Shown: positions 55,472 to 58,400 of the stretch, piece by piece | Layout: the number at the start of each line of letters is the position of its first letter | Numbering within the stretch: position 1 is the first letter of the stretch | Assembly: GCA_021513715.1 (NCBI GenBank) | Contig: CP084167.1 | Location: 640,001 to 704,000, forward strand | Direction: 5' to 3' | DNA from: Candidatus Heimdallarchaeum endolithica | GTDB lineage: Archaea > Asgardarchaeota > Heimdallarchaeia > Heimdallarchaeales > Heimdallarchaeaceae | DNA length: 64,000 nucleotides | Translations under genes and position numbers: made by a program | The notes under the pieces: generated by a model | Database searches by the model: none | What the model was told of the DNA's origin: nothing | The model's input: the letters and a program-made list of their open reading frames with translations, nothing else

Positions 55472-58400
55472 CTATAATTTTCCTTCATTTGAGCGCTCAA
55501 AAGATGAGAATTCATTAAGAAGGCGGTCAATAGCTTCTGTGATTTCTTCTTTACTACCTGATGCAAAAGTGAAAATAACCATTTCTCCATCTATCACAAG
55601 GAGATCTTCAGGAAGGGTAACTAACCATCTATACAATGCCCCACGATTAGTGAATTCTAATGCATCCACTAAATCTTGAATAGACACTTTTTTAGCTCTT
55701 TTTGCTAGTCCTCCTAAAGTATTTCTTCTTTTAATAGACATTTGCCATTCAGCAAAAGAATCAAATCCTTCATTTAACGCTTGTTGATATGTAGGATAAT
55801 CTGGAAAACCATTTTTACTTGCTTTGCTTGCAGAAGTAAAATCAGGAGCTTTCATTTTCTTAACAAAAATTAACCCATTTTTATTTTCAGCGCCTAGTTT
55901 TTGAGCTTCTTCATATTCTTCATAATTAGAAAAACCACCATCTTTTATCTTTTTAGCAATATCATAACTAGGAGCCCCTAACTTCTTCGTTAGTTCAAAT
56001 CTTTCTTTATTTTCAGCGCCTAGTTTTTGAGCTTCTTCATATTCTTCATAATTAGAAAAACCACCATCTTTTATCTTTTTAGCAATATCATAACTAGGAG
56101 CATTAGTTTGTAAAATTTCTAAATTCATTTTTCTTTTATTTAAACGGTAGCGAATGAAAAATACCAAGCCAACTATAAATAATAAAAATAATGATCCGAT
56201 AGGAATAATGTAAAATTTTAAAGGGTTAGAACTTGATTTTAAGGGATTTGTATTAAATATTAACTCTATTTTATCGGAAAATCCATCGTTGTCTGTGTCT
56301 GTGTCTGTAGGGTCAGTATAATAAGTATTTACTTCTTCTTCATCAGTTAACCCATCGTTGTCTGTGTCTGTGTCTGTAGGGTCAGTATAATAAGTATATT
56401 CTTCTATGTTAGTTAGCCCATCATTATCATCATCTTCGTTTGCGTTACTTGTTAATGGGTCTAAATTGTAAAGTACTTCCCACCCATCTGGCATTCCATC
56501 ATTGTCTGTGTCTGTGTCTGTAGGGTCAGTATAATAAGTATATTCTTCTATGTTAGTTAGCCCATCATTATCATCATCTTCGTTTGCGTTACTTGTTAAT
56601 GGGTCTAAATTATAAAGTACTTCCCATCCATCTGGCATTCCATCATTGTCTGTGTCTGTGTCTGTAGGGTCAGTATAATAAGTATATTCTTCTATGTTAG
56701 TTAGCCCATCATTATCATCATCTTCGTTTGCGTTACTTGTTAATGGGTCTAAATTATAAAGTACTTCCCATCCATCTGGCATTCCATCATTGTCTGTGTC
56801 TGTGTCTGTAGGGTCAGTATAATAAGTATATTCTTCTATGTTAGTTAGCCCATCATTATCATCATCTTCGTTTGCGTTACTTGTTAATGGGTCTAAATTG
56901 TAAAGTACTTCCCATCCATCTGGCATTCCATCATTGTCTGTGTCTGTGTCTGTAGGGTCAGTATAATAAGTATATTCTTCTATGTTAGTTAGCCCATCAT
57001 TATCATCATCTTCGTTTGCGTTACTTGTTAATGGGTCTAAATTGTAAAGTACTTCCCATCCATCTGACATTCCATCTTCATCAGTATCAGCTTTTTTGGG
57101 ATTTGTACCTAAGTAATCTTCCAAAAAGGAGGATAAACTATCATTGTCAGGGTCTACATCTGCTAAATTATTTGTTCTGGAAAAGTTTCCTGTTCCACTT
57201 AAACCCTGCCAAAAAACATTAATACCTGAAGGTTCAAATTCTAAAGCATAAATACTATAGTCAAAACTGCCTATTAATAAATCTAGTTTTCCATCCCCAT
57301 TTATATCTGCGATAGCAGGAGAAGAGTCGATATCTCCACCTGTTGTGTATGACCATATTACTGTCCCATTTTGCCCATTAAGAACATAAATCCTGTCATC
57401 TTTACTTCCTATTATTACATCTAGTTTTCTATCCCCATTTATATCTGCGATAGCAGGAGAAGAGTCGATATCTCCACCTGTTGTGTATGACCATATTACT
57501 GTCCCATTTTGCCCATTAAGAACATAAATCCTGTCATCTCTACTTCCTATTATTACATCTAGTTTTCTATCTCCATTTATATCTGCGATAGCAGGTGAAG
57601 AGTAAATAACTCCACCTGTTGTGTATGACCATATTACTGTCCCATTTTCCCCATTAAGAGCATAGACTAAGCTATCATAACTTCCTATTATTACATCTAG
57701 TTTTCCATCCCCATTTATATCTGCGATAGCAGGAGAAGCGCAGATATCATATCCTGTTATATATGACCATATTACTGTCCCATTTTCCCCATTAAGAACA
57801 TAAATCCTGTCATCTCTACTTCCTATTATTACATCTAGTTTTCCATCCCCATTTATATCTGCGATAGCAGGAGAAGAGTCGATATCTCCACCTGTTGTGT
57901 ATGACCATATTACTGTCCCATTTTGCCCATTAAGAACATAAATCCTGTCATCTTTACTTCCTATTATTACATCTAGTTTTCCATCCCCATTTATATCTGC
58001 GATAGCAGGAGAAGAGTCGATATCATATCCTGTTGTGTATGACCATATTACTGTCCCATTTTCCCCATTAAGAACATAAATCCTGTCATCTCTACTTCCT
58101 ATTATTACATCTAGTTTTCCATCCCCATTTATATCTGCGATAGCAGGAGAAGAGTGAATAGCAGCACCTGTTGTGTATGACCATTCTAATAAACCAAATT
58201 TTCCTATAACATATATTGTATTATCAACGCTACCTACAATTACTTCTGTAACTCCATCATTGTCTATATCCGCTGCAGAACATGAAGAAACAATATAATT
58301 GTTAGTTTTGTAGTACCAAAGTCGATTAGAAGTCAATGAATTTACCGAACTAGAGAGAGATATCTGCTGTTCTGATAATGGTAAGGAATAACTAAAACTT

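Follow-up and report, generated by a model that had tools for sequence, protein, structure and literature searches.

A C-terminal module with a modelled PCI-type winged helix and a predicted UFC1-docking end helix on receptors and repeat proteins of a Heimdallarchaeum

Receptor-like membrane proteins and soluble repeat proteins of Candidatus Heimdallarchaeum endolithica share a C-terminal module that structure prediction renders as a PCI-type winged helix followed by a conserved end helix. This helix is predicted to dock in the α1/β1 pocket of a UFC1-like E2, the pocket used by human UBA5 and UFL1. Probably, though well short of certainly, the module recruits the E2 and thereby turns varied recognition proteins into scaffold-type ligases or adaptors; its carriers may be tagging ligases that are interchangeable with one another and form a family without a close counterpart in eukaryotes.

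In humans, we know of one UFM1 ligase. A 2023 survey found UFM1 and UFC1 in eukaryotes only (PMC10183829), and a later preprint reports the presence of Ufm1 in Asgard archaea (10.1101/2024.07.03.601958). Our literature search retrieved no paper on the module, on Asgard UFC1 or on its ligases, and none on an activity of any archaeal UFM1-like system. Should the ligase reading be true, the carriers would supply the missing E3 layer of the archaeal UFM1-type pathway, show that close relatives of eukaryotes couple protein tagging to receptors, and point to an ancient origin for the helix-in-pocket hand-over from E1 to E3.

The module and its carriers

Our analysis started from a window of 64,000 nucleotides (contig CP084167.1, positions 640,001 to 704,000), for which an initial annotation had proposed that a propeller-bearing membrane receptor and an LRR gene end in the same domain, despite unrelated N-termini. 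Both points are borne out: in a pairwise alignment, the tails of 55472-58597 (-) and 13453-13923 (-) are 35% identical over 83 residues (E 2e-14), whereas the N-termini are dissimilar, with an FG-GAP propeller and TSP3 repeats in the former and LRRs in the latter. The domain had been assigned to 55472-55740; it is indeed found there, but starts slightly before this span, its winged helix beginning at 55756.

The receptor consists of an N-terminal hydrophobic segment, an FG-GAP propeller, a Ca-binding TSP3 stalk, a transmembrane (TM) helix, helical repeats and the module, in this order (Table 1). Judging from the topology of the TM helix and the basic residues that follow it, the module would be cytoplasmic. 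The positions of its end helix that matter in the following are I77, L80, L81, F84, F87 and E88, in the numbering of the 95-aa module.

Two tandem genes for small GTPases of the Rab/Ras family (window 52721-53943, (-)) are situated downstream of the receptor gene at a distance of about 1.5 kb; a gene for an MFS transporter separates them from it. The window also encodes three module-free surface proteins (11709-13148, 14749-16182 and 16605-19700) with beta-helix-like ectodomains, in which the TM helix is followed by no more than a short basic tail, two of them with additional TSP3-like repeats; their ectodomains are of similar kinds to those of module carriers.

Table 1. Coordinates of the features discussed in the text. 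Positions refer to the window, except for the two-gene units, which are given by locus.
Feature	Position	Strand	Basis
1041-aa single-pass receptor-like protein	55472..58597	(-)	translation, profile and topology analysis
FG-GAP/PQQ-type beta-propeller, 138-bp tandem unit, 6.7 copies	57236..58321	(-)	
TSP3_bac acidic Ca-binding repeats, 144-bp unit, 5 copies	56243..57154	(-)	
Transmembrane helix, then basic residues	56144..56215	(-)	
Cytoplasmic (predicted) short helical repeats, TM helix to module	55745..56101	(-)	from translation
PCI-type winged helix, helix-strand-helix-helix-hairpin (receptor)	55568..55756	(-)	
Terminal amphipathic helix and Gly-Lys end, predicted binder of the UFC1-like E2 (receptor)	55475..55552	(-)	
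LRR gene, 72-bp units, 6.7 copies, and module; broken allele	13453..14429	(-)	
Winged helix of the LRR gene's module	13549..13719	(-)	
Terminal helix of the LRR gene's module, divergent, with Asp-Lys instead of Gly-Lys at its end	13456..13536	(-)	
Two-gene units	L005:4040-5635, L010:4005-5876, L035:2832-4634, L020:2392-4177, L065:2531-4142		

While the tail is shared as proposed, the LRR gene is not intact, as the present allele contains both a frameshift and a stop codon. Downstream of the ATG start codon at 14429, the frame is lost at an A8 run (14376-14383) that lacks one base, and a TGA codon in frame at 13929-13927 ends the gene one repeat ahead of the linker; the module now resides in a 156-aa, TTG-started ORF with a single LRR. 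The assembly was made from Nanopore reads and corrected with Illumina data, so an error in the A-run is conceivable. Intact alleles of this gene probably exist, because contigs of three other public runs read CGA in place of the TGA codon and one of them has A9 (depth below 5 in each). Two runs contain forms of the gene with approximately 3 or 5 fewer 72-bp repeats, likewise at a depth below 5 each. Among the other LRR carriers of the genome, two more are split.

The HMM that the annotation had envisaged, seeded with the two window tails, converged after two rounds (threshold E<1e-4) and detected 26 copies of the module in the 3.33-Mb genome, all of which end at most 4 residues from the stop codon. 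Their carriers comprise 14 membrane proteins of the single-pass type, whose ectodomains are propellers, beta-helices or TSP3 repeats, and 12 soluble proteins with LRR, WD40, helical or second winged-helix parts. Among the soluble ones are an intact LRR paralogue (genome 312335-314209) and a WD40 protein (genome 2288434-2289873). With a profile of the tail only, two receptors whose winged helix is divergent and one weak match are gained, for a total of 29 carriers, 18 of which are encoded within 418-699 kb of the genome. The weak match is a 1612-aa propeller/TSP3 receptor (L038:2485-7320; genome 450485-455323), in which the tail helix and a Gly-Lys-Lys end follow straight after the TM helix, without a winged helix.

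In a wider search, the module profile yielded 540 representatives at 50% identity, and those matches that bear an organism name are from Heimdallarchaeota. Among the best 150 of the 540, the module is C-terminal in 134, accompanied by TM helices in 68 and present in tandem in 8, and in a further architecture, seen in 11 of these 150, a zinc ribbon and a RING replace the conserved helix end. The front ends of the relatives include LRR, WD40, HEAT, TPR, Cdc48-N, EVE and ferredoxin domains. The genome copies and the domain architectures of the relatives thus substantiate the earlier suggestion that the module is joined to variable recognition repeats, both extracellular and intracellular. A protein tree of 25 modules is too poorly resolved for counting independent fusions; it has four label changes, with one not excluded.

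Some carriers are organized in a recurrent two-gene unit (Table 1), where a full-tail carrier precedes an LRR carrier whose tail ends at the helix, without Gly-Lys.

Fold of the module

AlphaFold2 models the module, based on 24 copies, as helix-strand-helix-helix-hairpin and a subsequent 21-residue helix (pLDDT 78), with the winged helix complete within one chain. In VIA-align, the best structural matches are PCI subunits, namely Rpn12, with 63 residues aligned at an rmsd of 1.3 Å (Z 9.6), and CSN7 (Z 8.6), followed by DDRGK1 of DDRGK1/UFL1 (DDRGK1 part of 8B9X; Z 8.1, rmsd 2.1, 62 aligned). A Foldseek search with the module model gave nothing at E<=0.001 and placed CSN3 at the top of its ranking; the fold assignment rests on this ranking and on VIA-align. 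At the sequence level, 10 of the 24 modules match Pfam PCI weakly (best E 4e-4) and a few whole proteins exceed its cut-off. Pfam PCI (PF01399) matched neither window protein, and single-sequence searches of Pfam, PDB and Atlas features with the module returned nothing usable. Going by the model, the module is a PCI-type winged helix with a conserved end helix, PCI-like in fold and short of the full PCI definition.

The idea of a winged-helix-like domain, put forward in the initial annotation, agrees with both the model and the structural matches. Its analogy to TIR or death domains found no support, as the modelled fold, in which one helix accompanies a winged helix with its beta-hairpin, is neither of the two. 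Adaptors of the TIR and death-domain type do resemble the module in that one output domain is attached to membrane receptors as well as to cytoplasmic repeat proteins, but their fold is unrelated, and the predicted partner of the module is an enzyme, not another copy. Still, contacts between modules might allow receptor tails to recruit soluble carriers of the LRR or helical kind. Such homotypic binding would fit the occurrence of one module on receptors and soluble proteins, the two-gene units, which pair a helical carrier with a short-tailed LRR carrier, and the tandem modules; moreover, PCI winged helices are known to oligomerise (PMC10936438). We nevertheless regard it as very unlikely to be the module's role, since homotypic binding alone explains neither the operon link described below nor the RING swap, and it could coexist with E2 binding by way of the winged helix.

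A DNA-binding winged helix is a further possibility, as regulators of the MarR/PadR/IclR type are among the fold matches (Z 6.3-7.4). That the carriers are membrane-tethered or soluble transcription regulators appears barely conceivable to us, however, as the PCI and DDRGK1 winged helices outrank these regulators and the module core tends to be acidic, with a mean net charge of -1.4 and only 20% positive, including the would-be recognition helix (helix 3), which has a mean of 1.0 Lys/Arg versus 1.9 Asp/Glu.

A UFM1-type operon and the pocket of its E2

At positions 531484-536286, the genome harbors a UFM1-type operon with genes for an E1, a JAMM protein, a modifier, an E2, an EAP30-like protein and an SPFH protein. 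UBA5-type E1, UFC1-type E2 and, by a weak match, UFM1-type modifier are all present: the E1 is UBA5-like (best PDB matches UBA5 at E 1e-52 versus MoeB at 1e-24); the modifier, 88 aa long, is weakly Ufm1-like (E 0.08) and ends in Val-Gly-Leu; the E2 is UFC1-like with a conserved Cys and matches UFC1 before any other E2, by sequence as well as by model, for which UFC1 accounts for 29 of 29 Foldseek matches at E<=0.001. A search of the genome for DDRGK gave no match. None of the genome's own carriers is encoded inside the operon, the nearest being about 22-26 kb away.

Several peculiarities surround this system. A soluble 252-aa protein with multiple winged helices (L104:1279-2037; genome about 2186040-2186800), distant from the operon and without the module tail, scores above the cut-off of the UFL1 Pfam family (PF09743). 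The JAMM protein (L036:14459-15514), like that of the congener, has a C-terminal helix with a similar hydrophobic pattern, which is not kept in more distant genomes. In genome G273, an 897-aa ORF (L074:9333-12023) contains a UFC1-like E2, seemingly with a modifier-like end, which makes for an unusual fusion. Finally, the E2s of two relatives (L067:9539-10207 and L068:9613-10281) possess their own acidic C-terminal linker with a helix like the E1 tail, and it is possible that these E2s block their own pocket with it.

We sampled 301 genomes of the phylum, 24 of which encode a UFC1-like E2. Tail-bearing modules occur in 18 of these 24 versus 7 of the 277 others, counts that are descriptive, as the sampled genomes are related and incomplete. 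For this count, 16 candidates per genome were scored; G118, G065 and G104, which only seemed to include the tail, were taken out, and G219, G249 and G252 were kept without inspection by eye. Six of the seven genomes with a tailed module and no detected E2 have a variant helix, and a renewed search for a UFC1-like E2 in ten genomes with incomplete assemblies found none. In eight E2-bearing genomes, carriers are located within the operon or adjoin it. G282, for instance, has three carriers in tandem immediately after a modifier-E2 fusion, and in other Asgard genomes carriers adjoin E1, JAMM and UFC1-like genes. The co-occurrence is with the entire operon, and the E2 is not singled out over the JAMM, EAP30-like or SPFH protein.

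The zinc ribbon and RING relatives complement this picture. They include genomes without a detected UFC1-like E2, and the RING form predominates in family f6, where no UFC1-like E2 was found; these relatives have the same winged helix with an alternative E2 recruiter.

A mostly single-copy match in family f11 (34 of 76 genomes), which we had considered as a lid subunit, is in fact a WD40 protein with a tail-less winged helix (L016:3155-4321 and L017:2639-3868), and its 34 f11 genomes have no UFC1-like E2.

The JAMM gene also allows a different reading. C-terminal helices of PCI proteins bundle with MPN helices, and PCI-MPN assemblies include the proteasome lid, the COP9 signalosome and eIF3. 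If the module were a true PCI assembly unit, the winged helices of the carriers would form an arc and their end helices would bundle with the MPN/JAMM protein of the operon, bringing a tag-removing protease to the receptors. The fold matches to Rpn12, CSN7 and CSN3, the weak Pfam PCI matches and the place of the JAMM gene in the operon are in line with this, and PCI domains (PF01399, PF10075) likewise consist of a winged helix and a subsequent C-terminal helix. Yet no helical solenoid precedes the winged helix in the window proteins, where we find short repeats after the TM helix in the receptor and LRRs with a linker in the LRR gene (some relatives have HEAT or TPR repeats at this point); the module differs from PCI subunits in being fused to receptors and repeats; the large, variable and shuffled family of 29 is unlike a fixed six-subunit core; and the conserved face of the end helix is taken by the E2 in the model. 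We consider this reading distinctly unlikely, and gave less weight to plain PCI assembly because of the link to the UFM1-type operon.

The predicted complex of the module with the E2 reached a score of 0.63, compared with 0.00 for the best of three controls; 58 of 80 solved complexes attained this level, as did 2 of 110 mismatched pairs. At least 70% of the contacts agree between runs, with a partner pLDDT of 71-72, and all confident contacts of the module are made by its end helix (residues 71-91). The contacted E2 residues 40, 43, 47, 50, 51, 54, 58 and 67 correspond, in an HMM alignment, to human UFC1 V29, L32, Y36, L39, I40, V43, K47 and R55, which are reported to contact the helices of UBA5 and UFL1 (PMC8481289; PMC10702826). 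UBA5 inserts L394, L397, M398, M401 and M404 into the UFC1 pocket (PMC8481289), and UFL1 inserts I8, L11, F15 and Q19, mutations of which abolish binding (PMC10702826; PMC10937380). The spacing of the former recurs in module residues I77/L80/L81/F84/F87 and that of the latter in I77/L80/F84/E88, a hydrophobic spacing that is common in amphipathic helices. In 122 sequences, these residues of the helix belong to the best conserved part of the module (I77 96%, L80 95%, E88 89%), together with K94 (98%).

As the human UFC1-UBA5 and UFC1-UFL1 complexes have been solved (7NW1, 8C0D), the prediction may partly reflect memory of, or likeness to, these structures, and for this reason we take the pass as a sign of likeness that supports binding, short of demonstrating it. 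A profile built from 12 E1 C-terminal helices of other genomes offers a further view: when it was run against the 2519 C-termini of the genome, the carriers ranked high (AUC 0.94), with 18 of 29 in the top 5%, and unrelated amphipathic C-termini scored well too. Conversely, the tail HMM gave at most 5 bits against archaeal E1 tails. At the sequence level, E1 tail and module tail would therefore be described as sharing a common pattern, not a demonstrable homology. Overall, the evidence points to a heterotypic partner of the modelled module, the UFC1-like E2, rather than to homotypic stacking.

Scaffold-type ligases, competitors or substrates

In the ligase reading, each carrier would combine a variable recognition part, such as an extracellular propeller or beta-helix or a cytoplasmic LRR, WD40, HEAT or TPR domain, with an E2-recruiting end. 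The last helix would take over the charged E2 after its release from the E1, such that a single chain would act like a non-RING E3 of the scaffold type, or like an adaptor, in conjugating the archaeal UFM1-like tag. The front end would recognise a target or signal, and transfer of the tag to a protein nearby would be favoured; either the front end or the position in the membrane would decide which proteins come close enough for tagging. While helix-E2 binding is modelled, ligation and its substrates, the part played by the winged helix and any control by an extracellular ligand are points that we infer.

Binding in the E2 pocket could also inhibit rather than ligate. The carriers might compete with the E1 and keep the E2 from it pending a signal, or they might be substrates, recruiting the E2 in order to be tagged themselves, possibly at the terminal lysine. 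A competition of this kind has a precedent in the human E1 and E3, which compete for one UFC1 pocket (PMC10702826), and it would accord with some 29 carriers facing one E2 gene, with the near-invariance of K94 outside the modelled interface, with the receptor that has its tail right after the TM helix and no winged helix, and with the two relatives whose E2 has a similar helix on its own acidic linker. We hold this to be unlikely and prefer the ligase reading, mainly because of the RING swap, which suits a ligase better than a decoy. Self-tagging is further opposed by geometry, as the pocket and the catalytic Cys are on opposite faces, some 40 Å apart in human UFC1 (PMC8481289), which leaves K94 out of reach in cis. 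The alternatives considered in this and the preceding sections are not fully exclusive, given that the model leaves the winged helix unoccupied, which could thus oligomerise or contact a substrate.

The human ligase of UFL1 and DDRGK1 (also named UFBP1), with CDK5RAP3, shares with the module a terminal amphipathic helix of the same hydrophobic spacing for the same E2 pocket (modelled here; PMC10702826; PMC10937380), a winged helix beside this helix and the lack of a RING or HECT domain; like many carriers, it is also anchored to the membrane. The helix of UFL1 is N-terminal and comes before a platform in which two proteins share several winged helices, whereas that of the module is C-terminal, placed behind just one winged helix of the same chain. 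Furthermore, one human ligase stands against about 29 variable carriers, many with extracellular recognition domains. A Pfam search with the 24 modules did not have UFL1 (PF09743) or DDRGK1 (PF09756) among its matches. The module accordingly resembles this ligase in the E2-binding step and is not a member of its family.

Similar considerations apply to UBA5's UFC1-binding sequence (UBS), which, like the module's end, is a C-terminal helix with this spacing and, by our prediction, this pocket (PMC8481289). The archaeal operon E1s have kept a UBS-like helix that is similar to the module tail. The latter differs from the UBS of UBA5 in being longer, in its conserved aromatic-Glu pair and Gly-Lys end, and in its occurrence on non-enzymes.

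Asgard multidomain HTH/PCI proteins linked to ESCRT are comparable to the carriers in their patchy distribution and in their TPR, Ig-like and PCI-like winged-helix domains, and have been proposed to act in the sorting of protein cargo (Makarova et al. 2024, PMC10936438). A family with winged helix and end helix, or a link to a UFC1-like E2, is not described in the part of the study consulted here.

A broader scenario, which we find possible yet doubtful, would be that the Heimdall group and some other Asgard archaea run UFM1-type tagging through tens of one-chain, non-RING E3s, many of them cell-surface receptors, such that a ligand outside the cell would trigger tagging at the membrane; the E2-docking helix would then have been a shuffled plug-in before eukaryotes arose.

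As to what the front ends detect, the fast turnover of LRR carriers, their variation in repeat number and the patchy spread of the family may point to variable targets, for example viruses or partners. At one locus (L106:1856-7495), four genes in the same orientation combine LRRs with several PCI-like winged helices and a faint ScoMcrA_N domain, and two of the four encode module carriers; a further carrier, P0147, contains an EVE domain; both are hints of nucleic-acid sensing or defence. In the genome of the congener, a membrane protein with a Gly-rich end of alternating Cys and Ala is encoded just before a possible radical SAM gene (L034:248-3281), a locus that is possibly a modified-peptide system.
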